In this document: positions 1,195 to 38,867 of the stretch, in pieces
Layout of the letters: every line of letters begins with the position of its first letter
Position numbering within the stretch: position 1 is the first letter of the stretch
The notes under the pieces: generated by a model
The model's input: only the letters and a program-made list of their open reading frames with translations
Database searches by the model: none
Told to the model about the DNA's origin: nothing
Made by a program: the position numbers and the translations under genes
NCBI GenBank assembly: GCA_048939625.1
Contig: JBHLPH010000011.1
Span: 1 to 62,581 of the forward strand
Source: Promethearchaeota archaeon
GTDB lineage: Archaea; Asgardarchaeota; Hermodarchaeia; Hermodarchaeales; Hermodarchaeaceae
Length of the DNA: 62,581 nucleotides
Reading direction: 5' to 3'

Positions 1195-1769
1195 AGTTGT
1201 ATAAACTCCCATGTGTCCTGTTGGAGAGATTGGAGAAGGCGAGTAGCCTCTTCTTTCTCAAGCAGTAAAAACAGCTTCGCTACGTGTTTACAGAATCTAT
1301 GAATGACGCTTACTCTTCGCCAATCAGGACAGTCATGTGAAATTCGTCTCGTTTCCTCATCTATCTCGAGAACATACTCTTTTGTACCTTGAACAGTTGC
1401 TTTAATTTTCAGCGGGGACTTTGATATTCGAGTAAATTCAACGGCTTTATCGTTCATACCCACCGCACGAGAGAGCCGAGATGCGCTTACAAAAAGCTGT
1501 AACTGAGTGCCAAAATCGGAGGATGCTTTGGGTGGTTCAGGTTCAGACTCTACAAATTGAGGGCGTATCACAACGCCGTTTTCAATATTTAGTTTTCCTT
1601 GCTTGTTGAGATCAAGAATCATTTGAGTTGCTTCTGAGGGGCGAAATTGTCGTAAATCAAAGGAGATAAAGAACACCAATTGTTGTATGGGAACCTGGGC
1701 TTTTCCAATTGCGCGAAATGCATAATCTACTAGTCCAAGAGGAGTTTGGGGCACTCGGTGCATGAACAT
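1191..1769 (-). CDS. DUF2240-like N-terminal domain fused to a SWIM zinc finger
   Basis: N-terminal LVFFISFDLRQFRPSEA motif; C-terminal HDCPDW...FCKHVAKL is SWIM-type. Directly downstream of cdc6. Confidence 0.6.
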   Translation of the reverse strand: MFMHRVPQTPLGLVDYAFRAIGKAQVPIQQLVFFISFDLRQFRPSEATQMILDLNKQGKLNIENGVVIRPQFVESEPEPPKASSDFGTQLQLFVSASRLSRAVGMNDKAVEFTRISKSPLKIKATVQGTKEYVLEIDEETRRISHDCPDWRRVSVIHRFCKHVAKLFLLLEKEEATRLLQSLQQDTWEFIQL

Positions 1770-1775
1770 GGCTTC

Positions 1776-3047
1776 CTAAGAAGATGATTTCTTCAAGGTT
1801 TTTGGCACATAACTTGAAAGGGTCTTTATTCGACTGTCGCGTTCCAATACATCGGTGACCATTTTTTTCGGTACGCTGAGACGAATGTTCTTGGTTCGTC
1901 CGTATCTACCCTTACTGATTACTTTTGCATTCACAAGACCTATTGCATCTAAATCGTTGATGAGATCGCTGACGCGTCGCTGAGTGAGTGGATCCATTCC
2001 AAGTTGAGTGCAAATGTCCCCGTATACATCTTGGACCTCACCTGTTACAGGATGAGGATGTTTGTGGCGTTCCAACAAGTATACCGCATAAAGCACCAGT
2101 TTCTGTTGAACAGGTAATGTTCGTAATACTTCGAGAACAGTGTCACGTTCAATGCTCAGTCGCGCTTTTTCAACGTGTTCAACTTTAACGTTGTCACTGG
2201 ATTCTCTTTCAGCGATTTCCACAGCAACTCGTAAGAGATCAAGGGCCCTACGTGCATCGCCTTCTTCCCTTGCAGCTAGGGCTGCACATAAATTAATAAC
2301 ACCAGGCTCTTCTAAGATTCCCTCTTTTAAGCCAACAGAACTTCTTCGTCGAAGAATATCCTGTAGTTGGAGCGCGGTATAGGGATGAAAGATGACCTTT
2401 TCTTCACTAAGGCTACTAAGCACTCGCGAATCCAGATACTCGGGGAAGCGGAGATCGTTGGATATACCAATTAGACTTACGCGAGCCTTTGAAAGCTCAT
2501 AATTTATGCGAGTAAGTTTGTACAATGTGTCGTCTCCACTTTTTAGGACCAAACGATCAATTTCATCGAGCACAATAATCGTTAACAAATCCTGGCTTTC
2601 GAGCAGTTCGATAAGCCTAGAATGTACTTCGTCCGTTGGCAGACCAGTAAAAGGAACCTTCTGTCCTAGTTCAGCACAGATTCGGGCAAGAACCCGATAG
2701 TCGGTGTCTACATTTCGGCAATTAAGATACACTGACTTGAAGGGCAGTTGAAGTTCACCGAATTTTGTTGTTAATTCGCGTAAGACGTATCTGGTTACTG
2801 CAGTTTTTCCAGTTCCAGGTTTTCCATAGACAAAAACGTTTGATGGCCGACTACCCTTCAATCCTGTTGCGAGGATATTCCCTATTTGTGTAATTTGATC
2901 ATTGCGGTGAGGGAGAACATCAGGGACATAAGAATGCCAAAGCACTTTTCGGTCCTCGATTAGAGTCGGACCTGAACTCAGTCTCTCAAAGATGCGATCA
3001 AGTGGTCGAGGGTCGTCCATGTCATAGGCTCCTTCACTAGGTCCCAA
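1776..3047 (-). CDS. cdc6: Orc1/Cdc6 replication initiator, origin-associated; probable start ATG 3020
   Basis: YVPDVLPHR, Walker A GKPGTGKT, Walker B LDEID, GDARRALDLLR, C-terminal wHTH ending SKGRYGRT. Confidence 0.97.
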   Translation of the reverse strand: MGPSEGAYDMDDPRPLDRIFERLSSGPTLIEDRKVLWHSYVPDVLPHRNDQITQIGNILATGLKGSRPSNVFVYGKPGTGKTAVTRYVLRELTTKFGELQLPFKSVYLNCRNVDTDYRVLARICAELGQKVPFTGLPTDEVHSRLIELLESQDLLTIIVLDEIDRLVLKSGDDTLYKLTRINYELSKARVSLIGISNDLRFPEYLDSRVLSSLSEEKVIFHPYTALQLQDILRRRSSVGLKEGILEEPGVINLCAALAAREEGDARRALDLLRVAVEIAERESSDNVKVEHVEKARLSIERDTVLEVLRTLPVQQKLVLYAVYLLERHKHPHPVTGEVQDVYGDICTQLGMDPLTQRRVSDLINDLDAIGLVNAKVISKGRYGRTKNIRLSVPKKMVTDVLERDSRIKTLSSYVPKTLKKSSS

Positions 3048-3150: not shown

Positions 3151-3533
3151 TGTTCACAATTGGCGCGCTAAATGTTAACATTAATTCCAAAAAAACAGCT
3201 ATTTCTCCTTCTTTTCTAGATTGAATCCAAAATTGATATTATTATTGGGTTAACAAAGGCTCCCCCCTTCATTTCCACTGGAAAATGGTTCTAAGAGCAT
3301 AAAATCGTTAGAAAGATTATCAATGTGTTAACAACATGTGAACACCTTCAAAAGATGGAGAAATGGCTTAAAATAGAGAATAAAGGACGAAGAGCTGAGA
3401 TTTAATCTATTTTCATTTGTAGACAAGAGAAATCTTCCTTAACCTAACCAAGACCCGTAAGAGCCTTTGTTGATGTTCACTTCATTTTCTGGATCATTCA
3501 GTTCACACCGTCACACTTTTATTTCTGTGAACA
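3151..3533. repeat. Dispersed pseudo-palindromic TGT(T/G)(A/C)ACA repeats, about 8 copies
   Basis: tgttcaca 3151, tgttaaca 3173, gttaaca 3249, tgttaaca 3326, tgtgaaca 3337, tgttcac 3474, gttcaca 3501, tgtgaaca 3526. Confidence 0.6.
3262..3284 (-). promoter_or_regulatory. ORB1, origin recognition box with G-string
   Basis: Reverse complement reads TTTCCAGTGGAAATGAAGGGGGG. Confidence 0.92.
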
Positions 3534-3585
3534 AGGCAGACTATATGGGACTGGAGAGCAAATAACACCCTAGTGGGGGCCAGCA

Positions 3586-4041
3586 ATGAAGAAACGGAAA
3601 CAAAAGATCACCATCGAAGGCTTGACAATTGAAGGAAAACCTTGTGACATCACAATTACCTTTGATGATGGCCTCCCAGCTTCAATCACCGAGTCAATCT
3701 CAACTGCCTTGAAAGGCACCGATAGATCGAATACTTCCGCTGAAACACCTCCAAGCTCATCTGCAATCCCTGATGTTGAATCCTGGACAGTTCGCCAAAA
3801 AGTTCGTTACATTGTTTTGCGCAATTGCCGTCACGGTTGGTTTACCTCAAAAGACATCCAAGAATTGTATGACCACACTTTTCACCCCTCTATCCCCCTA
3901 GCAACAGCTTCAACATACCTATCAAGAATGCATAAAGAAGGGAGTCTCACCCGAAGAGGATCAGCAGCCCAACGCGAATATCGTCTCAACATTGAAGATC
4001 TTACCGACGAAATCGCTGAAGTCTTGGCCAACCAAATCTAG
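3586..4041 (+). CDS. Winged-helix DNA-binding protein within the origin region
   Basis: C-terminal WFTSKDIQELY...LATASTYLSRMHKEGSLTRRG...REY wHTH pattern; divergent from cdc6. Confidence 0.75.
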   Translation: MKKRKQKITIEGLTIEGKPCDITITFDDGLPASITESISTALKGTDRSNTSAETPPSSSAIPDVESWTVRQKVRYIVLRNCRHGWFTSKDIQELYDHTFHPSIPLATASTYLSRMHKEGSLTRRGSAAQREYRLNIEDLTDEIAEVLANQI

Positions 4042-4183
4042 ACAAAAACAAAGCAACCAATTTGGCTCTATTTTGGGTAGAAAGTTTCGCACATTAGTTA
4101 TAAACTTTTATAACTAGATCAATGCTGTTGAAGATTGAATCTGATCACTACTCAAATCAGGCTGTCTTTGGTGTTAAGTTACT

Positions 4184-4204
4184 CCCCTTCGTTTCCACTG
4201 GAAC
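4184..4204 (-). promoter_or_regulatory. ORB2
   Basis: Reverse complement reads GTTCCAGTGGAAACGAAGGGG. Confidence 0.92.
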
Positions 4205-4386
4205 TCGAAAATCTTGAAAAGTTGGATGTTGTTTTACTGAATTCGAAGAATCTTCCCCAGTTGTTTTCAATCTTTCTTCTATAAATACTTTACAGTCTCT
4301 ACATAACTTCTATTAGTATTCTAGACGATTGTTTTGCGCATTTTACAATTAGTTGAAAGGGTAACAGAAAAGATAGTATTTGAGAA

Positions 4387-4408
4387 GTTCCAGTGGAAAT
4401 AAAGGGGG
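4387..4408 (+). promoter_or_regulatory. ORB3
   Basis: GTTCCAGTGGAAATAAAGGGGG, inverted relative to ORB2. Confidence 0.92.
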
Positions 4409-4419
4409 TTATCTAATTA

Positions 4420-4716
4420 CTAAGCTACTAGTTGATAATATACAGAAGGACGGCCACGACGCCCATTTCGCTCTATATATTTCTCTACGACACCTGAGAT
4501 CAGGAGATTCATTAGGGTATCATAGACAGTGGTCCTTGGGATCCCGGTTTTCACCGTTATCTCTCCTCGTGTAAGCGCACCTTTATCTCGTAAAAGGTCG
4601 GTGATATGTCCCTTGACGTCTGCAGGTTCGGTCCGCTGGATTTGCGATGATCTCTGTCGGGACTTTGGTTTTTGTGTTCCGTGGGTTGCTTGTTGAGACG
4701 TTCGGGTAGCGGCCAT
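4420..4716 (-). CDS. Small TrmB-like winged-helix protein
   Basis: LTRGEITVKTGIPRTTVYDTLMNL...GRRGRPSVYY wHTH pattern. Confidence 0.8.
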   Translation of the reverse strand: MAATRTSQQATHGTQKPKSRQRSSQIQRTEPADVKGHITDLLRDKGALTRGEITVKTGIPRTTVYDTLMNLLISGVVEKYIERNGRRGRPSVYYQLVA

Positions 4717-4772
4717 AATACTACAACTCTGCGTCTAGATAAATATCGGCTATTTATATTAGTTGTGGATGA

Positions 4773-4785
4773 TTTCCACTGGAAC
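4773..4785 (-). promoter_or_regulatory. Mini-ORB (ORB4) without a G-string, upstream of the small wHTH gene
   Basis: Reverse complement reads GTTCCAGTGGAAA; TATA-like segment at 4751-4760. Confidence 0.75.
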
Positions 4786-4811
4786 TTATTGAATTCAATG
4801 AAATAAATGAA
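4785..4811. repeat. 9-bp tandem array A (TTCAWTGAA family)
   Basis: cttattgaa-ttcaatgaa-ataaatgaa. Confidence 0.75.
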
Positions 4812-4854
4812 ACTATTCTTTACTAAAACACTGAACGTTGTGTTAATGAATGTA

Positions 4855-7200
4855 TTATTGTATCATAGAACGGGACACCAGAGATTGACCTGCTGAAGTC
4901 CCTGCATCGCCTGGGGGGACACTTTGGTGCAAAAGAAATTGAATTCCTTCCTTCTCCACTATAGAACGAATAACCCGTGTAAGTATCTTATTATACGCAA
5001 CCCCTCCAGAGAAACCAATCTTCTGAATCCCATTTGAGTTTGCCGCGCCAATTGCTGTCTCAGCTAACGCTTGACCAAGACTATGGTGAGCTGCCAAGGC
5101 AAGATCAGGACCTTTGTATCTCTTTCGTTTTTGAAGCACTTGATTAACCAAAACTTCTGTTCTGATAATCTTCGACTTGCCCTCCTGATCAATGGGGACT
5201 TCTAAACGGAGCTTGGGATTCACTTTTCCTGAATTTGCAAAAGCCTCCAACTGAATGGCTGGTTCTCCCTCGTATGTTCGCTTGTATGAAATTTTGAGCA
5301 AGGCTGCGAGTGAATCTAAAACACGACCTGTACTTGAGGTGAAAGGGGTGTTAATCCTCTGTGTAAGTTGAGAGAGAATGATAGCATACTCCGTTTGCCC
5401 TTGAGGTAGCGCAATCTTTGCTTCATCCTCAAAGAGCGCCTTTAATTCGTCTTGAGGATATTTCTTCGAAAGTATACCTAACAACATTCGGAACGGGTAT
5501 TTGGCAGCCTGATCTCCTCCAGGCATTGGGTGCGGTTCAAGAAATCCTGCTCGAGTATATTGACTAGCGTTTCCGACAAGAATCTCTCCACCCCATATGG
5601 TGTTATCCGGACCATATCCAGCACCATCACAACAGATTGCTACAATATCTTCTTCTGATGGAATTTTATGATCTGCAAGCAATGCAGCTAGATGAGCATG
5701 GTGGTGTTGTACACGAATTAGTGGGACTTTTTGATTCTTTGATAATTCCAATCCATATTGCGAGGTGAGAAAATCAGGGTGCAAATCACAGGCAACAGCT
5801 TCAAAATTGGAAACTCGAAGCAATCGCTGTAAATGAGCCAGACTCTCTTGTAGATATGTCAAGGACTCAATGGTATCAATATCGCCTATATGCTGTGTCA
5901 AGTATATGCGTCTTTTGTGATATATCGCGCCTGTATTTTTTTCCAGAGCACCAAGAGCGAGTACGGTGGGTCCCCCATCTGCGGTGTCTATTGGTTCAGG
6001 AGCATAGCCCCGGGAACGACGGATAATTAATCCCTGGTTGAAGAGAGGGATTACTACCGAGTCATCACAGCGTTGATGGATTGTTCGATTATGAGTAAGT
6101 AAGTAATCTGCCAGTTCCATGAAACGTTCTTGATATGTGGAAGCATGTATTATGGTAGGCAAGCCTACCGGGTTTGCACTGGTCATCACTAATGCGAGAT
6201 CTTGCAGTCCTTCAAATAATCGTAAATAAATCCCTGAATACGGAAGCATAACACCTATTGTATCTAATTTCGGGGCTAGATTTTGTGCTAAAGGGAATGG
6301 CCTACGTTGGTTTAGCACTACGATCGGGCGTCGCCATGAAGTTAGAAGCTGTTCTGCTATCTCGTCAACGTGTGCAAATTCTCTTACATCATCAAGGCTC
6401 TTGGACATAATGGCTAAGGGCTTGTTAGGCTTTTTTCGTAATTCACGCAAACGTGATATCTCTGTGGAGAGAGAAGCACGAACGGCTAGATGGATTCCCC
6501 CTAAACCTTTGATAGCTATGATTGCACCTTCATTAAGTAATTTCACAGCTTCAACAAAAGGGTCACTTACCTCAACACGCCTTCCATCCGATCGCAGAAG
6601 TTTGAACTGAGGTCCACAAATAGGGCAGCAAATAGTCTGCGCATTATATCGGCGATTTAGTGGATCATTATATTCCACATCGCAATCTGCACAGAGTGGA
6701 AAATCGTTCATCGTAGTTCGTTCACGGTCATAAGGTGTATCGGTTATAGTAGTATATCGGGGTCCACAGATTGCACAACAAGTCATGGGATATTGGTAGT
6801 GACGGGATTGAGGGTTATTCATATCCTCGATACAATCCGGACAAACCGAAATATCAGGGGGAATGACAGATCCCCCCGCTTGTTTCTCATTTTTCGATAT
6901 TCGAATTTGAAAATCAGTGAATCCTTCCTTCGTCGGCTTCCATATCGTTTGAATACTATCGATGACAGCCAAATACGGCTTCTCATTTTCAATGGATTCA
7001 ATGAATTCAATGATTTTTTCTTTTTCTCCCTCCACCACGATTCGAACCGCTGAATTTCCAGTATTCAGAACATAGCCGTTTAAACAACGGTTCACGGCCT
7101 GGGCGTAAATAAATGGACGAAAACCGATTCCCTGAACGACACCGACAACTCGAATTTCAGCTTGTTGAATATCAGTCACGGTGTCATCTCCGTGTTTCAC
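4855..7200 (-). CDS. hypF: Hydrogenase maturation carbamoyltransferase HypF
   Basis: Acylphosphatase domain GVVQGIGFRPF, CxxC zinc fingers, KGLGGIHL, QHHHAH, PPGDAG. Confidence 0.97.
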   Translation of the reverse strand: MKHGDDTVTDIQQAEIRVVGVVQGIGFRPFIYAQAVNRCLNGYVLNTGNSAVRIVVEGEKEKIIEFIESIENEKPYLAVIDSIQTIWKPTKEGFTDFQIRISKNEKQAGGSVIPPDISVCPDCIEDMNNPQSRHYQYPMTCCAICGPRYTTITDTPYDRERTTMNDFPLCADCDVEYNDPLNRRYNAQTICCPICGPQFKLLRSDGRRVEVSDPFVEAVKLLNEGAIIAIKGLGGIHLAVRASLSTEISRLRELRKKPNKPLAIMSKSLDDVREFAHVDEIAEQLLTSWRRPIVVLNQRRPFPLAQNLAPKLDTIGVMLPYSGIYLRLFEGLQDLALVMTSANPVGLPTIIHASTYQERFMELADYLLTHNRTIHQRCDDSVVIPLFNQGLIIRRSRGYAPEPIDTADGGPTVLALGALEKNTGAIYHKRRIYLTQHIGDIDTIESLTYLQESLAHLQRLLRVSNFEAVACDLHPDFLTSQYGLELSKNQKVPLIRVQHHHAHLAALLADHKIPSEEDIVAICCDGAGYGPDNTIWGGEILVGNASQYTRAGFLEPHPMPGGDQAAKYPFRMLLGILSKKYPQDELKALFEDEAKIALPQGQTEYAIILSQLTQRINTPFTSSTGRVLDSLAALLKISYKRTYEGEPAIQLEAFANSGKVNPKLRLEVPIDQEGKSKIIRTEVLVNQVLQKRKRYKGPDLALAAHHSLGQALAETAIGAANSNGIQKIGFSGGVAYNKILTRVIRSIVEKEGIQFLLHQSVPPGDAGTSAGQSLVSRSMIQ
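6988..7014. repeat. 9-bp tandem array B, inside the hypF coding sequence
   Basis: ttcaatgga-ttcaatgaa-ttcaatgat, encoding IIEFIESIE on the minus strand. Confidence 0.7.
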
Positions 7201-7267
7201 CGACTCTAGCAGAGTATTAATTCTTTTGGAGTTATTATCTATAGTATCTATTCAGGTGCGTGTAATA

Positions 7268-7861
7268 GTGACTGAGTTTCGAGTGCCTACACCAAAGGAA
7301 TTACAGGATTTACGAAAGAAGGTAGGACTTACTCAAGCTGAATTAGCAGAGCAAGTAGGTATTAGTCAATCTCTAGTTGCACGTATAGAAATGGGGAAAG
7401 TAAATCCAAGCATTGCAACTCTCAAACGGATCCTCAGTGTTATCGAAAGGCAGAAAAAAACTCATTCTAGTCTCGGTGATTTGTTAAAATGGAAGGCCCG
7501 TTCAACCAAACTAAATCCGCTTATCTGGGTTAGCCCTGATGACAAAGTGCGACGTGCAGCAATCCTCATGCGGCGTCACGGAATTTCTCAACTCCCAGTA
7601 TTGATGGGAAATACTTCTGCCGGATCTATCAGTGAAAGCACAATAATCCGCCAATTGATGACCATGGGGTCACCAAAGGTCTTTGGGCTCTCTGTTCGAG
7701 AAATTATGGAGCCTCCTTTTCCTACAGCTGATATACAAGACAATGTTGATTCAGTACTAGCCAAGATTGCTTCAGGCGTTGAAGCTATACTCGTATTGAA
7801 TGAAGATAGACCTGTAGGAATCATTACAAAAATAGATATCATCGCGTTTACGAGGATGTAA
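7268..7861 (+). CDS. XRE-type HTH plus CBS-pair transcriptional regulator
   Basis: LRKKVGLTQAELAEQVGISQSLVARIE, then two CBS repeats (GISQLPV, GIITKIDI). GTG 7268 follows AGGTG; the ORF track starts at 7181. Confidence 0.92.
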   Translation: MTEFRVPTPKELQDLRKKVGLTQAELAEQVGISQSLVARIEMGKVNPSIATLKRILSVIERQKKTHSSLGDLLKWKARSTKLNPLIWVSPDDKVRRAAILMRRHGISQLPVLMGNTSAGSISESTIIRQLMTMGSPKVFGLSVREIMEPPFPTADIQDNVDSVLAKIASGVEAILVLNEDRPVGIITKIDIIAFTRM

Positions 7862-7881
7862 AGACCTATTCAAACAACAAA

Positions 7882-7908
7882 TTCAATAATTTCATTAAAA
7901 TTATTAAG
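7882..7908. repeat. 9-bp tandem array C (degenerate), upstream of the AAA+ gene
   Basis: ttcaataat-ttcattaaa-attattaag. Confidence 0.5.
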
Positions 7909-8035
7909 ATTTATATTTCCAATACAATCAATAATCTTTTATCGTTGTAGACCTTTCCTTGAGATATTCTTGGAAGTGTTATAGCTGAGTGAACTGGATC
8001 GATTAGTCGAGCAAACACAGAAGTTCGACCAACAA

Positions 8036-9289
8036 ATGCTCGCGAAATGGGGTTTTAAAACTGAAAGGATTGAACTCTTCGGGATTGATTCCGCGGATTT
8101 GTACGTTGTTCCCGAAGAAGAAGCACTCGCAATTAAACGCGCTGTGAATTATCTTCGAAATCAAACCGCCAGTGTCGTAGTTTCTGGTCCATTAGGCGCA
8201 GGTAAAACCACTTTTCTAGAGATGATTCAACAATCCCTTAATCGCCTACCCAATGTTCGTGCGATTCGCCTTGAAGGTGTTAGTTCAGCTGACGCACTAA
8301 TTGATGACCTTGTCCACGCTAATATCGGTGAACTAACAGTTCGTGATTTCCTGATTGACAAAGTGGGGGTTCGGGTCGTCCGAAGTGGATCAATAGCTAA
8401 ACGATTATCGCGCCTACTTCTTGCTTTGAGAACTGATGCCGAAGAAAACGGGACCTCCTATGTATTGTTAATAGATGAATTCCGGCAACTAGAAAGACAA
8501 AGGCCTGATAATCGTGTTCGAATTGTTGATACACTTCTACGAATGGTAAACGATAAGACTAAGGATGGTCGGCGTTATCTTGTTCTAGCCTTAGCCATTA
8601 TAACACGCGTTGGAGAAAGTGCAGTTCGGACACTTGAGCTCCTCTCTTCTGTCGGAGAATCTCTCGGTCATGGCAGTAAGTCCGCGATTAGGCGACGATT
8701 CGTTGAGATTTACGATATGCGTCGAATGAAAGAAATCAGTGCCCGTAAAGTAATGCTTTGGCGCTTAGCCCACCTCAAAGGTTCCTTAGATGAAATTAAC
8801 AAAGACCCTGAAGAAAGTATTGATCTCAATTCGGCAAAGATTAAAGAAATTTTAGCACCCTTCACAGGGGAAGCGCTTAATGCGATTTATAATTACTCAG
8901 GTGGAAATCCTGGTATTATGCTAGAGCTCCTTTTACGAACCCTTCAGGATGCAATCCGTGGAGCTGAGGTTCTAATAAACGATGGCTATACTTTGAATCA
9001 AGTCTTGTCAGTCTATCGAATAGACTCAGAGTACATCCAACAATTTGTTCAAAAAGAAGTAAAACGGGCTAGAGCCGAATTTACTAACTTTCAAACGAAT
9101 CTGTTGGAATTTCTCTCGGCCCCTCGCTCACTTGATGATATTGAATCTTGGCTTCAGGAAAAGGAACGTTCCTGGGAAAGCGTGTTAGAAGATTTCGATT
9201 TATTCGAAAAGCAAGGGCTAATCTATAGCCCGGAAGCTGGTCAGATACAAGCTACTGAACTTTGGACGAAAGGATCAACATTTGTGTAA
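8036..9289 (+). CDS. ExeA/AAA_22-like AAA+ ATPase with probable C-terminal wHTH; may start at CTG 7985
   Basis: Walker A GPLGAGKTT, Walker B LLIDEF, arginine-finger-like SAIRRRF, IYNYSGGNPG motif, C-terminal ...FEKQGLIY. Confidence 0.8.
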   Translation: MLAKWGFKTERIELFGIDSADLYVVPEEEALAIKRAVNYLRNQTASVVVSGPLGAGKTTFLEMIQQSLNRLPNVRAIRLEGVSSADALIDDLVHANIGELTVRDFLIDKVGVRVVRSGSIAKRLSRLLLALRTDAEENGTSYVLLIDEFRQLERQRPDNRVRIVDTLLRMVNDKTKDGRRYLVLALAIITRVGESAVRTLELLSSVGESLGHGSKSAIRRRFVEIYDMRRMKEISARKVMLWRLAHLKGSLDEINKDPEESIDLNSAKIKEILAPFTGEALNAIYNYSGGNPGIMLELLLRTLQDAIRGAEVLINDGYTLNQVLSVYRIDSEYIQQFVQKEVKRARAEFTNFQTNLLEFLSAPRSLDDIESWLQEKERSWESVLEDFDLFEKQGLIYSPEAGQIQATELWTKGSTFV

Positions 9290-9300
9290 GGTGAAAAGAA

Positions 9301-9675
9301 ATGTCAGCAACCGATCTCATTAGAGAAAGAATGGAGAAGGAAAAGGGAAAAGAAAAAAAACCCAAACCACGCGAAGCAAAACCAACAACCGAAACGAAGA
9401 GAATCGAGCTTGAAGAGCTCTCAACCAGAGTTGGCGACTCTGGGTTGAAACGATTGCGAATTGAAAGTGAATACGAAGGCAGACGAACAATAAGTGCAAG
9501 TGTACCTGCTTGGATTAAAGCGGCGTTAGATTTCGTCGCATTAGCTGCAACGAAATCAGGACAGGGTCAATATGCAGGTTTTGGCGGAAAATCCAGGTTT
9601 ATTGCTGAGGCTCTTGAGGAGAAACTAAAATCCGATTTTCCTGATGTGTACAAGCAATTACAGCGTGAAGGGTAA
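9301..9675 (+). CDS. Ribbon-helix-helix protein with a charged N-terminal tail
   Basis: RRTISASVP (strand), AWIKAALDFVA (helix A), KSRFIAEALEEKL (helix B); starts 11 nt after the ATPase stop, with SD GGTGA. Confidence 0.75.
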   Translation: MSATDLIRERMEKEKGKEKKPKPREAKPTTETKRIELEELSTRVGDSGLKRLRIESEYEGRRTISASVPAWIKAALDFVALAATKSGQGQYAGFGGKSRFIAEALEEKLKSDFPDVYKQLQREG

Positions 9676-9693
9676 AAGAAGAAATCTAATCAA

Positions 9694-9720
9694 GTAATTG
9701 AATTCATTGAAATTATTGAG
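9694..9720. repeat. 9-bp tandem array D
   Basis: gtaattgaa-ttcattgaa-attattgag. Confidence 0.75.
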
Positions 9721-9808
9721 ATTAGTGGTATTTACACGCCGTTACTCATTTTAGTGCCCGTTCTATTAATAGACTCCTTCTACTTCTCAGCATGGGTGGA
9801 ATGCGGAT

Positions 9809-10378
9809 ATGTCCTATGATGCAAGACGAGTTTGTGTAATTTCCTTTGATTTTAAACAAAAGAAAGGGAGAAGCCAAGCTCGAAAAACCCGTTTCTTTCG
9901 TGAATTATATGGTTACACTCAGCAAATCAAACAGCAATTGAAAGATGGTGAAGTTGCCGTACGAAACTATCACTATCCAGGAGTGTTGGATCAGATTCCG
10001 CATATTAAACTAGGGAGAAGCGTGTTGGCTGTAAATCCAGGAGACGAATATAAAATTATCAACCTGCTCCGTGATTTTGATGAAGTGTTGTTTTTTAATT
10101 TCATTAGTTGGCTCCCAGCTCATATGTGGTCAAAGAACGATAACCAATACACTAGGGCCAGTACTATGATCGCTAAATATGGGTTCCACTCAATTCTATT
10201 CCAGATTCAAGAATTAGGTGGTACTGCGCAATACACAGATCTTCTCGATGCTGGATATGATATGGAGTATATTCGGGAAGCCACTCACTATCTTACCACA
10301 AAAGAACTTCTTGTTAAGGATAATGACAACCTCGCTCTTACAATGAAGGCAAATCGAATTCTAAATTTGGTAGTCTAG
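9809..10378 (+). CDS. Hypothetical protein: Cas2/PaaX-like N-terminal domain plus C-terminal wHTH
   Basis: VCVISFD...FFRELYGY...KLGRSVLAV pattern; C-terminal YLTTKELL...LALTMKA. Confidence 0.5.
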   Translation: MSYDARRVCVISFDFKQKKGRSQARKTRFFRELYGYTQQIKQQLKDGEVAVRNYHYPGVLDQIPHIKLGRSVLAVNPGDEYKIINLLRDFDEVLFFNFISWLPAHMWSKNDNQYTRASTMIAKYGFHSILFQIQELGGTAQYTDLLDAGYDMEYIREATHYLTTKELLVKDNDNLALTMKANRILNLVV

Positions 10379-10394
10379 TATAAAAAATCACGAA

Positions 10395-10421
10395 TTCAAT
10401 ATGTTCATTGGGTTCATTGAA
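10395..10421. repeat. 9-bp tandem array E
   Basis: ttcaatatg-ttcattggg-ttcattgaa. Confidence 0.7.
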
Positions 10422-10426
10422 ACTAT

Positions 10427-10939
10427 TTACTCAGGCTTTAGCGCTGTTGGTTGGGCAAGGGCTTCAATGAGCTGCAGAATTCGATTCTGAGTTTGTTTAA
10501 GTGTGCTTAAATGAGTAGCAGTGGGTTTTTCTTTATTTGTAGCAACGAGGTCGTATTCGCGAGCATAACTTCGGATGTCCTCAGCAAGACTTTGATACCG
10601 CATCAAAGATGGGGTTTCGAATAGACCCAGGTAACCCAGTAGCACTAAAGTGAACACAGATTTGGTCACGTTACGTCTAGCTTGGGCTAGAGAACGATTG
10701 AAAGCTCCTCGAGTTACTCCACCACGTTTTCGTTTCGATCTTTTTTGGTCCCTTAGAGAAGCCTTCGTTTGGTAGTCAATCCGTTTTCCCCCGAATCCAT
10801 CTAAAAGATAGTCTAGTACTAAGGTTTCAAGTTGTACTCTGGACAGTTGACTATTTTCTGCCAGCATTTGAGTGATTGGGTCTTGAAGCATTCTACGCGC
10901 CCAGGAGCGCGTTTCCTCGATTTCGTTTTCTTGAGGCAA
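10427..10939 (-). CDS. Hypothetical archaeal HTH-like protein
   Basis: SQLSRVQLETL...VTRGAFNRSLAQARRNV helix-turn-helix-like pattern; SD GGAG upstream of TTG. Confidence 0.65.
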   Translation of the reverse strand: MPQENEIEETRSWARRMLQDPITQMLAENSQLSRVQLETLVLDYLLDGFGGKRIDYQTKASLRDQKRSKRKRGGVTRGAFNRSLAQARRNVTKSVFTLVLLGYLGLFETPSLMRYQSLAEDIRSYAREYDLVATNKEKPTATHLSTLKQTQNRILQLIEALAQPTALKPE

Positions 10940-11032
10940 ATCCTTATCTCCATGGATACAATTTTGTATACGTAGAAATTCAAGCTCTTATAAACTCGCT
11001 GATTAGAACTCTATTCGAAATATTTCTCTAGC

Positions 11033-11068
11033 TTGAATAAATTTAATGAATTCATTGAATTCAATGGT
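11033..11068. repeat. 9-bp tandem array F (4 units)
   Basis: ttgaataaa-tttaatgaa-ttcattgaa-ttcaatggt. Confidence 0.8.
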
Positions 11069-11091
11069 GTAACTAAGATAGTGAGCATTGA

Positions 11092-13077
11092 ATGAAGTTT
11101 TTATCCTTCAATAGCATTCACTTGGTGAGGATCTGGATAATGTGTTCAGACCAAGCTAACTCCTATTTTCCATATGCTGAACCTCGACCAGGTCAACTCT
11201 CACTGATTCATGCAATCAAAGAAGAAGTTTCGGTGGGGAATCATCTTTGTGTTGAAGCGGCTAACGGATTCGGAAAAACGATCGCCGCCTTATCAGGGGT
11301 CCTTCCACTCCTTGCTGATCGGACCTTTGGGATTATCTATGTTACTCGAACTCACAAGCAACTTGATCGGGTTATGCAAGAGCTTCGACAAATCTCAAAC
11401 TCTACTGGCCATAAAGGCATAGTACATCGAGGAAGGGCGGCTTCTTGTTTAAATCCTTTAGTTCGGAAATATGCTGCCAATGCCCAGGTTGCGATGTATA
11501 TGTGTAGCCAGCTTAAGCGGCTTGGACGGTGCAGCTTTTACAAGAATTTAGTAAATAAAACGAAAAAGAACGGAAACTTCCATAGAGATTTTATTTACAC
11601 ACCACTTACTGGCTTAGAATTTCGCTCTAAATGTCAAGCAGAGAAAGTGTGCCCCTATGAGCTCTCTAAGCGATTGCTACCACTAGTGAACGTCGTTGCT
11701 ACAACATATTTTCAGGTTTTTGATCCTAACATCCGTCAAATGTTCTTCGATGCCTTTGGACATCCAATATCTCAAACAATTCTTCTTCTCGACGAAGCTC
11801 ATAATTTACCTCGCATAGGTGTTGAACTAGCATCCGCAAAATTATCCATAAATTCCATTAACCGATCCCTAAAAGAAACCAAGAAATATAATCTCCCCAA
11901 GATTGGACGATTCTGTGTAATAATCGAAAATCTGATTCAACATTTACTTGAAACGAGAAAAGAAGACGAAATTCTACTGGAACAAAGCGAATTCACTCAG
12001 CAGATTTGTAAATTCCTGAAAATCTCTGACTTCAGTGTATTTGCCAAAAGTATGCAACAAACTGCTGACAAAATAATAAGTCAATTACTTGCACATGATG
12101 AACCTCCTGTAAGCTACATTCATTCCTTAGCTAGGTTCTTTGTCAACTGGAGTTACTTCTTAGATCGAACCGATGCCGCTTTTTTTCTTACAAGAAATGG
12201 ATTAAACAGCTCCTCAGTAAATCTCGAAATCATTGCACTGGACCCGCGAACATCGACAGCCTCAATATTGAACTCATGTCACGCTTCTGTACATTTATCA
12301 GGAACCCTAAAACCCGCAAAGGCTCATATTGACCTTGTAGGACTACCACATAATACAAGGATTCTCAATTTGCCTTCTCCATTTTCACAGGATCAAATGC
12401 TTACATTGATTAGTCTAGGAGTAACGACTGCAATGAAGTATAGAACTCCAAAAATGTATGAGAAAATATCTCATCGGATCCTTGAAGCCTGTCGGGCAAC
12501 TCCTCATAATGTTGGAATCTTTGTCCCTTCTTATTCTGTGTTAAATGCTCTTCTTGTTGCAGGCTTAGAAGAGCTACTTGATCGAGAACTATTCATTGAA
12601 AAACCAGGAATGTCCTCTAACGAAAACGATTCGCTAATAAAGAAATTTAAACAGAAGTCCGATGAAGGCGCGGGTCTTCTTGGTGTCCTAAGTGGTAGAA
12701 ATAGTGAAGGAGAAGACTATCCAGGTCATGAAATGGAAACAGTAGTAATTGTTGGCGTTCCCTATGCGCGACCTAGTCCGAGAGAAAGTGCACGTATCGA
12801 TTATTTTGAACGTCATTTTCCGAGAAAAGGACGATTATATGGTTATCAATTACCTGCAATGCGCAGTGCTTCTCAGGCCGCTGGAAGATCGATTCGACGG
12901 CTCGATGATAAAGGGGCAATAGTCTTTTTAGATGACCGCTATGCTACTAGATATTGTAATCGTTTACTTCCGAGTTGGATAAACGAAAACTTAAGGGGTT
13001 CGAAAGACGCTGATGAAGTACTCTACAACCACCTGAAGCTGTTCTATTCAACCAACAAATATAGCCAAACTTGTTAA
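11092..13077 (+). CDS. xpd: XPD/Rad3 family Fe-S DNA helicase; probable start ATG 11140
   Basis: FPY..PRPGQ Q-motif, ANGFGKT, Fe-S cysteines (CLNP...CSFY...CPYE), DEAHN, SGTL, SEGEDY, QAAGRSIR. Confidence 0.93.
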   Translation: MKFLSFNSIHLVRIWIMCSDQANSYFPYAEPRPGQLSLIHAIKEEVSVGNHLCVEAANGFGKTIAALSGVLPLLADRTFGIIYVTRTHKQLDRVMQELRQISNSTGHKGIVHRGRAASCLNPLVRKYAANAQVAMYMCSQLKRLGRCSFYKNLVNKTKKNGNFHRDFIYTPLTGLEFRSKCQAEKVCPYELSKRLLPLVNVVATTYFQVFDPNIRQMFFDAFGHPISQTILLLDEAHNLPRIGVELASAKLSINSINRSLKETKKYNLPKIGRFCVIIENLIQHLLETRKEDEILLEQSEFTQQICKFLKISDFSVFAKSMQQTADKIISQLLAHDEPPVSYIHSLARFFVNWSYFLDRTDAAFFLTRNGLNSSSVNLEIIALDPRTSTASILNSCHASVHLSGTLKPAKAHIDLVGLPHNTRILNLPSPFSQDQMLTLISLGVTTAMKYRTPKMYEKISHRILEACRATPHNVGIFVPSYSVLNALLVAGLEELLDRELFIEKPGMSSNENDSLIKKFKQKSDEGAGLLGVLSGRNSEGEDYPGHEMETVVIVGVPYARPSPRESARIDYFERHFPRKGRLYGYQLPAMRSASQAAGRSIRRLDDKGAIVFLDDRYATRYCNRLLPSWINENLRGSKDADEVLYNHLKLFYSTNKYSQTC

Positions 13078-13078
13078 A

Positions 13079-13105
13079 AATAATAAATTCAATGAATTCA
13101 TTAAT
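13079..13105. repeat. 9-bp tandem array G
   Basis: aataataaa-ttcaatgaa-ttcattaat. Confidence 0.7.
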
Positions 13106-13803
13106 TGCATGGTGTTTCTATCTTGCTAACAAGAGAACTCATCTCATCAGGAATCCAATCAATTGATGAAGCATTAGGTGGTGGGCTAGGTACTGGTGAG
13201 ATTTTCCATATCTTCGGACCAGGTGGAGTTGGGAAAACAACACTTGCACTACAATTTGCATTGAATGTAGTAAGAAATGGGAATCGAGTTTTCTATGTTA
13301 ACCTCGAAGGGCAATTTCCATTAGTACGCCTAAAGCAGATGACTAACACACTGTTCGACAAAATTACACCGTTAATCACAGTCGTGGCTCCTGACAATTT
13401 CAAAGGGCAATCAGCATTAATATCCAATCTTCACTCCATTTTATCCTCTGATGTTAAGTTAATTATTTTTGATACAATAGTCTCCCATTATCGAAAGGAA
13501 CATGGCCCTAACACTGATAATGTTATGTTAAATCGAAAATTGAATCAACAGCTAGCTTTTATTGCCCATGCAGCACGGTCAATAGGATTTTCAGTAATTT
13601 TGGTCAATCAAGTTCGTGGTGACTTAAATAGCGGTGATCATTTTCTTCCTGTTGCTGAATCAGTTCTCTCTTATTGGAGTACATACAATTTACAAATTAC
13701 TAGGACTGAATCCAAAGGCTACAGAGAATTTAAGTTGAAAAGGGAGGAAGATAGTGAACCAATCATTTTAGTATTGAGTCTAAATTCCTCAGGATTCCGA
13801 TAA
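13105..13803 (+). CDS. radB: RadB-like RecA-family ATPase
   Basis: ISSGIQSIDEALGGG, GPGGVGKTT, IIFD, VILVNQV; lacks the RadA N-terminal domain. Confidence 0.8.
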   Translation: MHGVSILLTRELISSGIQSIDEALGGGLGTGEIFHIFGPGGVGKTTLALQFALNVVRNGNRVFYVNLEGQFPLVRLKQMTNTLFDKITPLITVVAPDNFKGQSALISNLHSILSSDVKLIIFDTIVSHYRKEHGPNTDNVMLNRKLNQQLAFIAHAARSIGFSVILVNQVRGDLNSGDHFLPVAESVLSYWSTYNLQITRTESKGYREFKLKREEDSEPIILVLSLNSSGFR

Positions 13804-13813
13804 CCCAAACAAG

Positions 13814-14389
13814 ATGACCCTTATGTTTCACCCGATTCTATTATTACTGGGCTTTTGGTATGTTCTTCCCGCTTATGTAGCCAATGGATTCGCAGTGTTT
13901 GGTAAATTCGTTAAGTATCGACATCCAATCGATGGCGGACGTTCTCTAGGCGACGGTGAACCTGTTTTCGGTCCAGGAAAAACTTGGGAAGGTTTCCTTA
14001 TTGGTTTTATTTCTGGTGTACTCATCGGGCTTCTCCAAGTAATAGCAGGACCCTATCTCCTAGCTCTAATTATCCAGTACCTGATTATCCCACCCGAGTT
14101 TGTACCTGTTGTTCTCGTCACACCTCTTTTGGTAACACTAGTTGCTCTAGGAGCTCTTCTTGGTGATCTTGTTGGGTCGTTTATCAAAAGACGCTTGAAA
14201 ATTGAACGCGGTCGCCCAGCACCGTTGCTTGATCAACTCGATTTTCTCATTATGGCAATGCTTCTAGGTTCCTTGGTAACAGTTATCCCGCTTATTCTCG
14301 CCATATTCTTACTAATCGTTACTCCGATAATTCACCTTCTGGCAAATATCATCGGTTACCTACTTCATCTAAAACGAGAACCATGGTAA
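13814..14389 (+). CDS. carS: CDP-archaeol synthase
   Basis: PAYVANG, PIDGG, GKTWEG, GDLVGSFIKRR, LDQLDF; terminal KREPW. Confidence 0.95.
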   Translation: MTLMFHPILLLLGFWYVLPAYVANGFAVFGKFVKYRHPIDGGRSLGDGEPVFGPGKTWEGFLIGFISGVLIGLLQVIAGPYLLALIIQYLIIPPEFVPVVLVTPLLVTLVALGALLGDLVGSFIKRRLKIERGRPAPLLDQLDFLIMAMLLGSLVTVIPLILAIFLLIVTPIIHLLANIIGYLLHLKREPW

Positions 14390-14425: not shown

Positions 14426-14860
14426 TTATCCAAATTGTGTTGCAAGTATTAGTTTTTGCTCAATTAGCCATTGACATGCGAAGAACGAGATTAAGACAAG
14501 TACTAATCCAATAGCAAGCATCATTTGCGAATACCGTGGTCGATAGATGTTCCTCGTGCTCTGGTACATTACATAGAAACCTACGAATCCCACGAAATAG
14601 AGAGCACCACCTACTATTCCCTCAATTAGGAGCTGCCGGTGAATTCCAGGATATAGGGTAAGGATGATTTCACCGGTGTCTATCACTGGTTGGGTCTCAT
14701 AGGAGAGTACAAACATTCCTCCACTAACCACAAAGTAATACACTACTAAGATGATCCCAAATAGTATCCACTTCGAGGGCAAATGCAACTCTCCGAATTG
14801 AGGTCTCCGAAGTTTCAGCCGTGGTTTTCGAATGAATTTAGGCCACCAAAGGTCTGACAT
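14426..14860 (-). CDS. OSTC/DC2-like (OST3/OST6 family) oligosaccharyltransferase subunit
   Basis: PRLKLRRP...HLPS, YYFVVSGG, QLLIEG and GFVGF parallel eukaryotic OSTC; three TM segments. Confidence 0.8.
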   Translation of the reverse strand: MSDLWWPKFIRKPRLKLRRPQFGELHLPSKWILFGIILVVYYFVVSGGMFVLSYETQPVIDTGEIILTLYPGIHRQLLIEGIVGGALYFVGFVGFYVMYQSTRNIYRPRYSQMMLAIGLVLVLISFFACQWLIEQKLILATQFG

Positions 14861-15627: not shown

Positions 15628-16839
15628 ATGGAGATTATTCGCCATGAATTGCAACGCCCATCTGTATTTATTGATGAGGCGAAGCTTTCTGTCGACTATG
15701 TTCCTAACAACCTTCCTCATCGTGAGGACCATCTCCGTAAACTAACTCAGTTATTCCGTGGGGTGATTGAAACTCCTGGAAGGGTATCACAGAAAGTACT
15801 AATCGTGGGTGATACCGGGTCTGGAAAAACCTCCGTCACTAAGCTCTTTGGAAAACTGTTAGTTGAGATTGCACAGAGCCACGGATTCAATCTAGTCTAT
15901 GTACACGTTAATGCACGTCGTGAACGAACGGAATATATGATCTTGAACAAGATTCTCTCAGCGTTTCAAGCTGGTATTCCACTTCGAGGGTTATCAACAC
16001 AGGAACTTCTTTCAATCATTCTGGAATATATCGAATCGAAAGATCTCTACTTACTGATAACACTAGACGAACTCGGAGTTTTTCTTAAACGGCGTGGGGA
16101 AGAACTGCTCTATCTTCTATCACGCACGGTTGATGATCAACTCAATGCTCAACAGCGCATATCTCTAATTGGTATAAGTCGAAACCCATTGTTTGGTTAC
16201 ATTCTTGATCCCAGTACTTGGAGCACTCTTCAGAAGAACATGCTACGATTCAATCGTTATAACTCCCACCAGCTTCGAGACATACTGGATTTTCGTGTGA
16301 AGGAAGCTGTTTTGGACGGAGCCGTTCCTCCTAGTACAATCGATTTAATAGCTGACATAGCAGGTGCCTCTGGAGATGCGCGATACGCTTTAGAAGTGCT
16401 GTACAATGCGGGAAAGATAGCTGATGAAAAAGGGGTCTTACGTATATTACCTGAGTACGTTCGAAGTGCGAAGGCATTCATTACGCCTGAGATACGGCGA
16501 GAAGTACTTGTCGATTTATCGATGCATAGGCTTATCCTTCTACTCGCCGTGTGCAGACTACTCAAGACCTCCGAGGACGCTTATCTCACCACTGGTGAAC
16601 TGGAGGTCCGGTATGGACTAGTCTGCGAAGAATACTCGCAACATCCTCGCGCTCATACTCAGTTATGGGCGTACATTCAAGACCTTGTAGGCTTAGGAAT
16701 CCTCTCTACGAAGATCTCAAGCGGTGGACAACGCGGAAAAACTACTCTAATTAGCTTACCTGATATTCCTGCATCCGTTCTAGAAACTGAACTCGAATTA
16801 CTCCTCGAAAAAAGGAAAGGTAATGGAAAAGATGACTAA
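15628..16839 (+). CDS. cdc6: Second Orc1/Cdc6 paralogue
   Basis: YVPNNLPHRE, GDTGSGKT, LDE, GDARYALE, C-terminal GQRGKTTLI. Confidence 0.95.
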   Translation: MEIIRHELQRPSVFIDEAKLSVDYVPNNLPHREDHLRKLTQLFRGVIETPGRVSQKVLIVGDTGSGKTSVTKLFGKLLVEIAQSHGFNLVYVHVNARRERTEYMILNKILSAFQAGIPLRGLSTQELLSIILEYIESKDLYLLITLDELGVFLKRRGEELLYLLSRTVDDQLNAQQRISLIGISRNPLFGYILDPSTWSTLQKNMLRFNRYNSHQLRDILDFRVKEAVLDGAVPPSTIDLIADIAGASGDARYALEVLYNAGKIADEKGVLRILPEYVRSAKAFITPEIRREVLVDLSMHRLILLLAVCRLLKTSEDAYLTTGELEVRYGLVCEEYSQHPRAHTQLWAYIQDLVGLGILSTKISSGGQRGKTTLISLPDIPASVLETELELLLEKRKGNGKDD

Positions 16840-38699: not shown

Positions 38700-38867
38700 A
38701 TGAAGCTGATTACTGTGAATCTTCCAGAAGCGTATGTTAATGGAATCGAACGTTTGATTCTCGAGAAGCTGTACCCAAATCGCAGCGAAGCGATTCGAAT
38801 TGCAGTAAGAGATCTTTTGAAAAAAGAGCTTTGGGAGCAGAGTACTCCCCAACCGCAAATAAGGTGA
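38700..38867 (+). CDS. cdrS: CdrS-like RHH regulator of cell division genes
   Basis: MKLITVNLP...YPNRSEAIRIAVRDLL immediately upstream of ftsZ. Confidence 0.85.
   Translation: MKLITVNLPEAYVNGIERLILEKLYPNRSEAIRIAVRDLLKKELWEQSTPQPQIR

Follow-up and report, generated by a model that had tools for sequence, protein, structure and literature searches.

A predicted ORC/Cdc6-fold ATPase and a probable ribbon–helix–helix protein share an operon among locus-specific repeat arrays beside an Asgard archaeal origin

The window analysed here is the whole 62,581-nucleotide (nt) contig JBHLPH010000011.1, part of a 2.3-Mb Promethearchaeota metagenome-assembled genome (MAG; GCA_048939625.1) that is 88% complete and belongs to the Hermodarchaeia, in agreement with the names carried by close homologues. 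Close to the replication origin in this window, a gene for an AAA+ ATPase is followed by a small gene whose product probably adopts the ribbon–helix–helix (RHH) fold, and the pair lies among short tandem arrays of a 9-bp palindrome. The locus has the NTPase–RHH–repeat layout of a par operon with an AAA+ ATPase in the NTPase position; only a demonstrated role in partition would make it a new category. It is quite possible, and tentatively proposed here, that the operon encodes a par-like module that organises the origin.

Asgard archaea are the closest known relatives of eukaryotes. Characterised partition systems use NTPases of the ParA, actin or tubulin type. The module described here is compact, conserved and linked to the origin, with defined cis sites and two small soluble proteins, and is open to in vitro work without a cultured host. 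Conservation was assessed in 15 genomes of the genus, two Ranarchaeia loci (L016 and L017), one further contig (L029) and 400 Asgard genomes.

The operon and its ATPase

The open reading frame (ORF) of the ATPase (positions 8036–9289, 417 residues) and the small gene (9301–9675, 124 residues) lie on the same strand with a spacing of 11 nt. The gap contains the sequence GGTGA at 9290–9294, which is kept in 12 of 13 loci of the genus and reads GGTAA in the other; the short spacing and the conserved ribosome-binding site indicate that the two genes form one operon. Arrays C and D bracket the pair at 7876–7908 and 9697–9720, and the distance to the origin recognition boxes (ORBs) of oriC is 3.2 kb. 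This is the arrangement that had been described in the original prediction, which was made from the letters alone and put the distance at about 3–4 kb.

The start of the ATPase is less straightforward. In 12 of 12 relatives examined, the gene begins with GTG and two variable codons, followed by the conserved peptide LSELDRLVE (M-x-x-LSELDRLVE). In this MAG the third codon, counted from the conserved GTG, is TAG (7982–7984), which leaves two possible starts for the ATPase, CTG 7985 and the conserved internal ATG 8036. The start at 7985 proposed earlier is thus correct as regards the open frame, but its codon is CTG and the first canonical start is ATG 8036. Either start would shorten a conserved N-terminal segment, by up to 20 residues; alternatively, the stop codon is an assembly or strain variant.

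The motifs GPLGAGKTT, LLIDEF, SAIRRRF and SGGNPG, which cover those named in the original prediction, are all present and invariant in 22 homologues. Across the same homologues the C-terminal winged helix is the most invariant block of the protein, with most of the last 35 residues unchanged. The deviant Walker A of ParA-type proteins (KGGxxK[ST]) is absent, the P-loop being GPLGAGKTT, and a Pfam search with the ATPase gave no CbiA, ParA or AAA_31 match. The cut-off of PF01637 (ATPase_2) is passed marginally (36.5 versus 33.2 bits), those of the generic domain models AAA and AAA_22 are also passed, and precomputed Pfam assignments place PF01637 on almost all homologues. The Pfam families Cdc6_lid (PF22703) and Cdc6_C (PF09079) are not listed for the ATPase at E ≤ 1; both Cdc6 genes of the window score 1e-18 to 1e-30 against them.

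An AlphaFold model built on the 22-homologue alignment has a predicted local distance difference test (pLDDT) score of 77. The closest match is Aeropyrum pernix ORC2 (Foldseek E = 5e-9 and VIA Z-score of 16.8 over 313 residues spanning 2–406 with PDB entry 1w5s). Drosophila Cdc6 (Z-score 16.0), PABY2304 (2qen, Z-score 16.0) and SSO1545 (2fna, Z-score 14.2) are also structurally similar, as are A. pernix ORC1 on DNA (2v1u) and Pyrobaculum Cdc6 (1fnn), both with a Z-score of 15.0, and Sulfolobus Orc1 (2qby, Z-score 14.7). Further matches are to yeast and human ORC subunits and to TnsC (Z-score of about 14). As modelled, the ATPase comprises an AAA+ base, a lid and a C-terminal winged helix, with an Orc1/Cdc6- and PF01637-like fold in all three domains. 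The nearest ESM Atlas neighbours are AAA_22/ExeA-like families, and the earlier description of the protein as ExeA/TnsC/Cdc6-like with a winged helix-turn-helix (wHTH) and unlike ParA is borne out by these structural matches and by the missing ParA signature.

By sequence, the ATPase family is an orphan of very narrow distribution. When 1.84 billion representative proteins were searched with its profile, only its own family and a few PF01637 members (E of about 1e-5) were returned, and alignment to the local Cdc6 family (hhalign) covered the part from Walker A to Walker B only (P = 1.3e-3). In PADLOC and PHROGs the ATPase had only weak generic matches at the level of the P-loop, and the small protein had no match. 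Two remote PF01637 relatives, P0152 and P0154, were considered as kin systems and rejected, their contexts being unrelated (YdjM, and an element bearing TraG, respectively). At the P0154 loci (L087–L089), an ORF of 96–97 residues starts 7–10 nt after the ATPase, and the two adjoin genes for a TraG/TrwB-like coupling protein and a caspase-like peptidase, probably as part of a conjugative element. The 97-residue ORF that follows P0154 is unrelated to the small RHH-like protein.

The small protein

The small protein has 73 homologues, which share the invariant core Y-x-x-R-x-T-I-S-x-S-x-P-x-W-x-K ... Y-x-G-F-G-G-K-S. Its monomer model (pLDDT 60) comprises a helix at residues 3–15, a charged low-confidence stretch at 16–36, an extended segment at 52–69 and helices at 70–85, 96–112 and 114–123; an unpaired RHH chain would resemble this model. 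The N-terminal tail, which had been predicted to be charged and probably disordered, is charged and of low confidence at 16–36, but residues 3–15 are modelled as a helix.

Two lines of evidence suggest that the small protein has an RHH fold, which we consider probable. Comparison of the core with 13 RHH_1 domains from Asgard genomes (hhalign) gives P = 8e-4 and a probability of 25%, and the canonical register is kept over the strand, helix A and the beginning of helix B. The ESM Atlas model has template-modelling (TM) scores of 0.56–0.64 to RHH_1, CopG and NikR clusters over residues 58–124, and an ESM Atlas feature search places the protein near CB_ParB_C, MetJ, RHH_1, RHH_4 and antitoxin-RHH clusters at 0.85–0.87. 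The RHH assignment of the original prediction thus probably holds on these comparisons, while sequence searches of Pfam and the PDB lend it no support. PDB profile searches with the small protein returned no SegB at E ≤ 10, although the PDB set includes SegB (PMC8682754). No longer version of the protein, fused to another domain, turned up when such forms were looked for, although this negative carries little weight. The predicted complex of the ATPase and the small protein scores 0.20 against a mark of 0.32; this gives no verdict and is counted neither way.

Repeat arrays confined to one locus

The array unit is the 9-bp palindrome TTCAWTGAA, present in runs of 2.5–4 units in six or seven arrays spread over 8 kb. 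Nine of ten matches to a two-unit 18-mer in the whole 2.3-Mb genome (up to two mismatches) fall within 4785–13105 (8.3 kb), a clustering far above chance. The tenth (C78:5971) was set aside: it consists of two units inside an ORF of 513 residues and is probably a chance occurrence. Across the 15 genus genomes, 34 of 36 matches (up to one mismatch) are no more than about 6 kb away from the operon, and the remaining two fall on short contigs that may be its neighbours; a reversed control pattern gave none. The arrays are essentially confined to this single locus in every genome of the genus. Their sites are also kept in the genus: one array adjoins the outermost ORB and one lies within hypF, two others precede the operon and follow the small gene, and the rest are found in the orf189–orf170 gap, ahead of XPD and in the XPD–radB gap.

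Within hypF, identity at third codon positions is 0.79 over array B, compared with 0.41 gene-wide and 0.45 at invariant residues, and values as high occur in only 2 of 773 windows, indicating that the DNA sequence itself is under selection there. Array E lies between convergent 3′ ends; hence not every array is a promoter site. At each of the genus loci inspected, the outermost ORB is directly adjoined by an array (4773–4812 in this window), and the same holds in genome G022, which lacks the ATPase (contig L083, 10127–10180). This abutment suggests that the array-binding protein and Orc1/Cdc6 are physically coupled. Arrays are present wherever the small protein is present, and in every lineage examined one lies directly upstream of the operon that contains the RHH gene.

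Conservation and linkage to the origin

The ATPase is single-copy and occurs in 15 of 15 genomes of the genus, in the order hypF / HTH-CBS / ATPase / small gene / orf189 / orf170 (HTH, helix-turn-helix). The small gene follows the ATPase in 13 of the 14 other genus genomes; in G004 the two are on separate contigs. ORBs and Cdc6 lie 1.6–3.2 kb from the operon in each full-length locus. In MAGs labelled Ranarchaeia, a distant class, the small protein is 43–49% identical and its gene lies 10–33 nt downstream of the ATPase; a Cdc6 gene and its ORBs are 1.6–3 kb away, and arrays with the same consensus surround the pair. The 1.2-kb contig L029 carries a more distant ATPase (P0150), followed by an ORF that starts with the same N-terminal motif as the small protein. 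Between the classes, identity is 54–57% for the ATPase, compared with 44–52% for Cdc6-1 and 33–39% for HTH-CBS, orf170 and orf151, so that by sequence the conservation of the ATPase is no lower than that of Cdc6-1.

Among the 400 Asgard genomes, the small protein was found in the genus and in G022 only, and the ATPase in the genus only. The sister genus (G015–G018), in which neither gene was found in any of four genomes, was considered as a case of true absence and discarded. Three of these four genomes lack Cdc6-1, orf170 is found in none, and the sole contig with Cdc6-1 (L082) ends inside the origin; as the origin region is unassembled there, the count is no evidence of absence. This region seems to be systematically unassembled in the sister genus, possibly because of repeats.

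Loss of origin linkage, lack of co-conservation in relatives and a small protein of another fold had been named beforehand as grounds for abandoning the prediction. Examination of these three points found the pair beside oriC in 15 of 15 genus genomes and in L016 and L017, conserved together, and with a small protein that is probably RHH.

Cdc6-1, orf151, orf170, HTH_3-CBS and the small gene make up an origin neighbourhood common to Hermodarchaeia, Ranarchaeia and the ATPase-less lineages (33–41% identity).

Possible function of the operon

In the proposed par-like module, the small protein would bind the tandem TTCAWTGAA units as RHH dimers and would autoregulate the operon through the array at its own promoter. 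Its N-terminal helix would bring the ATPase to the RHH–array complex, recruiting or switching it. The ATPase may bind DNA and oligomerise in its ATP state, like ORC, Cdc6, TnsC and MuB, with hydrolysis triggered by its partner. Both proteins would then build a nucleoprotein complex limited to the origin-proximal 8 kb, for example for positioning or segregation, although it may instead serve compaction, control of initiation or mainly the transcription of nearby replication and repair genes. In this scheme we infer the array binder, the contact between the RHH protein and the ATPase, and the cellular role. A cis-acting structural role is plausible, and is favoured by the restriction of the arrays to one locus, by the arrays that are not at promoters and by the array that abuts an ORB.

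The distribution of the N-terminal helix is consistent with such a contact. The motif DLI[KR]x[RK][ML]EKEK is present in the ATPase-linked homologues, some gene calls starting inside it, and is missing in 12 of 12 of the homologues P0137–P0148; five of these were traced to contigs with upstream DNA, and none of the five has the ATPase. This co-occurrence is the pattern expected of an ATPase-contact peptide.

Several results weigh against the par-like module. A second group of small-protein homologues lies beside Cdc6 and ORBs with arrays of 9-bp period but no ATPase (L018–L020, L078, L080 and G022). The five loci that reach far enough upstream contain Cdc6 and ORBs, orf151-like and orf170-like genes and HTH-CBS, then the small gene; on the sixth, shorter contig (L080) the DNA upstream of the small gene likewise lacks the ATPase. 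Genome G022 is 93% complete and has no match to the ATPase at E ≤ 1e-10 anywhere. In the ATPase-less loci the array unit is more AT-rich, and in every case an array immediately precedes the small gene. It follows that the arrays accompany the small protein, or else some other neighbour common to these loci; the RHH–array unit is the core and the ATPase a lineage-specific partner. The function of the arrays does not need the ATPase, which is no obligatory 'motor'. Moreover, the ATPase-linked and ATPase-less small proteins may be two clades, in which case the co-occurrence of helix and ATPase counts only once. The highly conserved winged helix of the ATPase, rather than the RHH protein, could be the reader of the arrays, and to our knowledge no member of the ORC/Cdc6 clade acts in partition. 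The arrays, at 2.5–4 units each, have the size of operators, and most are upstream of genes.

The RHH assignment has similar counter-evidence. The small protein matches no Pfam or NCBIfam family, and Pfam on 19 family members shows no RHH; PDB sequence searches with it returned only chance charged coiled segments and a Pcc1 fusion construct. Its monomer model (pLDDT 60) matched nothing in the PDB at E ≤ 0.001 (Foldseek), and VIA wide gave only helical matches with Z-scores below 5 (TrpR, DnaA domain IV and TetR); the model is too poor for these fold searches to settle the fold.

The original prediction had read the pair as a possible new class of segregation or origin-condensation system driven by an AAA+ protein. 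The conserved, origin-linked pair with a non-ParA ATPase supports this reading in part, and the existence of the RHH–array unit without an ATPase counts against it. Its most specific version, a new Asgard class of partition or origin-positioning system in which an ORC/Cdc6-fold AAA+ protein replaces ParA and an RHH centromere-binding protein, sitting on the 9-bp arrays that flank oriC, recruits and switches it through the helix at its own N terminus, appears doubtful.

A local regulon is a possible, if somewhat unlikely, explanation of the same locus. The small protein would be an RHH transcription factor that autoregulates the operon and co-regulates origin-proximal genes through the arrays (the 98-aa wHTH gene, HTH-CBS, orf189, orf170, XPD and RadB), with the ATPase as a co-regulator or a product; it would resemble the RHH cell-cycle regulators aCcr1–3 or CdrS. 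Archaea have well-established regulators of this kind (PMC9976892, PMC13199686). Five arrays (A, C, D, F and G) precede gene starts and lie beside TATA-like sequences, and this predominance of promoter-proximal, operator-sized arrays favours regulation, as does the persistence of the RHH protein and the arrays without the ATPase. For a transcription factor one would expect sites in other parts of the genome as well, but throughout the genus the arrays stay within a single 8-kb locus. Array E, between convergent 3′ ends, fits it poorly, as does the array that abuts an ORB, and array B is at least 170 nt from the next start, still under nucleotide-level selection. Neither the very high conservation of the ATPase nor its coupling to the N-terminal helix is explained by regulation.

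The ORC fold and the origin location rather favour a role in initiation. The ATPase would here be a third, highly diverged ORC/Cdc6-type factor in the firing or control of the origin, for example co-assembling with Orc1/Cdc6 or loading or blocking MCM, and the RHH arrays would tether it beside the ORBs. The top structural matches are Orc/Cdc6 proteins over all three domains, in two classes the distance between the gene and ORBs is 1.6–3.2 kb, the outermost ORB is directly adjoined by an array, the region has a canonical Cdc6 gene on either side, and the conservation of the ATPase between classes at least equals that of Cdc6-1. We nevertheless regard this explanation as unlikely: there is no Pfam Cdc6_lid or Cdc6_C signal, the hhalign alignment to Cdc6 is limited to Walker A–Walker B (P = 1.3e-3), the sensor-2 position lacks an arginine, the scores of PF01637 proteins and TnsC are close to those of Orc/Cdc6, and the distribution is so narrow that most Asgard origins work without this ATPase. 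A remnant of a mobile element, or a defence or toxin–antitoxin pair, that lies near the origin by chance and has no role at oriC would agree with the patchy taxonomic distribution, with the frequency of AAA+ and small DNA-binding gene pairs on mobile elements, and with the small ORF that accompanies a remote PF01637 relative beside a TraG/TrwB-like gene. It is nonetheless very improbable, given the stable synteny with core genes across two classes, the single-copy gene, the spread of the arrays among core genes and into hypF, the generic P-loop matches in PADLOC and PHROGs, and the fact that no integrase, transposase or att-like repeats were seen at the locus.

If the ATPase and the RHH protein do act on the arrays as in the proposed module, this would be the first case of an ORC-fold ATPase providing the nucleotide switch in a centromere-like complex; otherwise the ATPase could represent a new accessory factor at an archaeal origin. 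Read most cautiously, the locus provides a new orphan AAA+ family, a new RHH-like family and a locus-specific repeat code beside oriC, with one array maintained within a coding sequence.

Comparison with known systems

The closest parallels in layout are the type Ib par systems (ParF–ParG and delta–omega) and SegAB. They share with the present locus an NTPase gene followed by a small RHH gene in one operon (the RHH call being probable here), an RHH protein with a charged N-terminal extension, tandem repeats upstream and elsewhere, and a position near the origin. SegB, ParG and omega are RHH proteins that activate their ATPase through the N-terminal tail and, as dimers, coat the repeats (PMC8682754, PMC12139799). 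In the present locus, by contrast, the NTPase has an AAA+ fold of the ORC/Cdc6 type and a winged helix of its own and is not a deviant Walker ParA, the small protein showed no sequence similarity to SegB or to solved RHH centromere-binding proteins in PDB profile searches, and the RHH–array unit also occurs without an adjacent NTPase.

With Orc1/Cdc6, the ATPase has in common an AAA+ base with an extra helical insert, a lid and a winged helix (Z-scores of 14.7–16.8 over about 300 residues) and the proximity to an origin. It differs in its lack of Cdc6_lid and Cdc6_C profile matches, in a sequence identity of only about 12–15%, in the missing sensor-2 arginine, in its pairing with an RHH gene and in being linked to 9-bp arrays rather than ORBs. 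PF01637, which includes PABY2304 and SSO1545 (whole-length Z-scores of 16.0 and 14.2), is the sole non-generic Pfam family passed; however, the score is marginal and the ATPase family forms a tight, isolated cluster. We know of no established function for PF01637 proteins, nor of any association with RHH proteins or arrays.

MuB, TnsC, TniB and IstB belong to the same AAA+ clade by structure (Z-score of about 14 for TnsC). When loaded with ATP, these proteins bind DNA and oligomerise, and hydrolysis triggered by a partner protein releases them. Unlike them, the present ATPase has no transposon genes nearby, and its locus is chromosomal, stable and linked to the origin.

MetJ/metbox and omega/heptad sites are tandem 7–9-bp (pseudo-)palindromic repeats of 2–5 units, with one RHH dimer per unit. 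The present arrays are likewise short runs of tandem palindromic units, but the unit is the 9-bp TTCAWTGAA and the arrays are dispersed over 8 kb at one locus on the side of oriC. Full-text literature searches yielded no account of such an ATPase–RHH pair or of the present arrays in Asgard archaea.

Other features of the locus

The features of the region are listed in Table 1.

Table 1 Features of the origin-proximal region and of the two proteins of the operon (positions in the window; residue numbers refer to the 417- and 124-residue proteins)
Feature	Position	Strand	Remarks
PolD small subunit	148–1194	+	
DUF2240	1191–1769	-	
Orc1/Cdc6-1 initiator gene	1776–3047	-	Pfam Cdc6_lid and Cdc6_C matches
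oriC zone, four ORB-like elements (TTTCCACTGGAA)	3264–4786	.	at 3264, 4184, 4388 (inverted) and 4773
orf151 (151 aa)	3586–4041	+	small ORF among ORBs
98-aa ORF (wHTH gene)	4420–4716	-	among ORBs
Array A	4785–4812	.	abuts ORB4 (4773–4786)
hypF	4855–7200	-	
Array B	6988–7014	.	within hypF coding sequence; three units, encodes IIEFIESIE
HTH_3-CBS regulator	7181–7861	+	
Array C	7876–7908	.	directly upstream of operon, beside TATA-like TTTATAT 7911–7917
GTG-TTA-TAG	7976–7984	+	start codon of relatives, with in-frame stop at codon 3
AAA+ ATPase gene	7985–9289	+	open frame from CTG 7985; first canonical start ATG 8036
Walker A GPLGAGKTT, residues 51–59	8186–8212	+	invariant in 22 homologues
Walker B D147-E148 (LLIDEF)	8474–8479	+	invariant in 22 homologues
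SAIRRRF, residues 216–222	8681–8701	+	candidate box VII/arginine finger before strand 5; invariant; placement inferred from model
SGGNPG, residues 288–293	8897–8914	+	putative sensor-2 position of lid, no arginine; invariant; role inferred
C-terminal winged-helix domain, about residues 349–417	9080–9286	+	aligns to winged-helix domains of A. pernix ORC1/ORC2 and PABY2304
Ribosome-binding site GGTGA of small gene	9290–9294	+	
RHH-like protein gene (124 aa)	9301–9675	+	
N-terminal helix, motif DLI[KR]x[RK][ML]EKEK	9307–9345	+	R10 near-invariant in ATPase-linked homologues
Conserved core, residues 58–124	9472–9672	+	TISASxPxWIK strand and helix A, GFGGKS loop, helix B
Array D	9697–9720	.	directly downstream of small gene
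orf189	9809–10378	+	
Array E	10404–10427	.	between convergent genes orf189 and orf170
orf170	10427–10939	-	
Array F	11033–11068	.	between divergent genes orf170 and XPD
XPD	11092–13077	+	
Array G	13073–13111	.	between XPD and radB
RadB	13105–13803	+	
CarS	13814–14389	+	
OST3/6-like	14426–14860	-	
Orc1/Cdc6-2	15628–16839	+	

The product of orf170 has no match among Pfam families; in the ESM Atlas it lies closest to clusters of unnamed families from archaea (Thor- and Bathyarchaeota), with scores of 0.93–0.94. Elsewhere in the window, a small gene at 38709–38825 encodes a canonical RHH_1 (CopG-type) protein, which scores 25.4 bits, above the cut-off, and is kept in the genus. In the 'Asgardarchaeia' locus L018, which has few 9-bp arrays, two copies of a 47-nt palindrome-ended element (GTGTTAGGGGG ... 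CCCCCTAACA) at 7788–7834 and 9656–9702 flank the HTH-CBS region.

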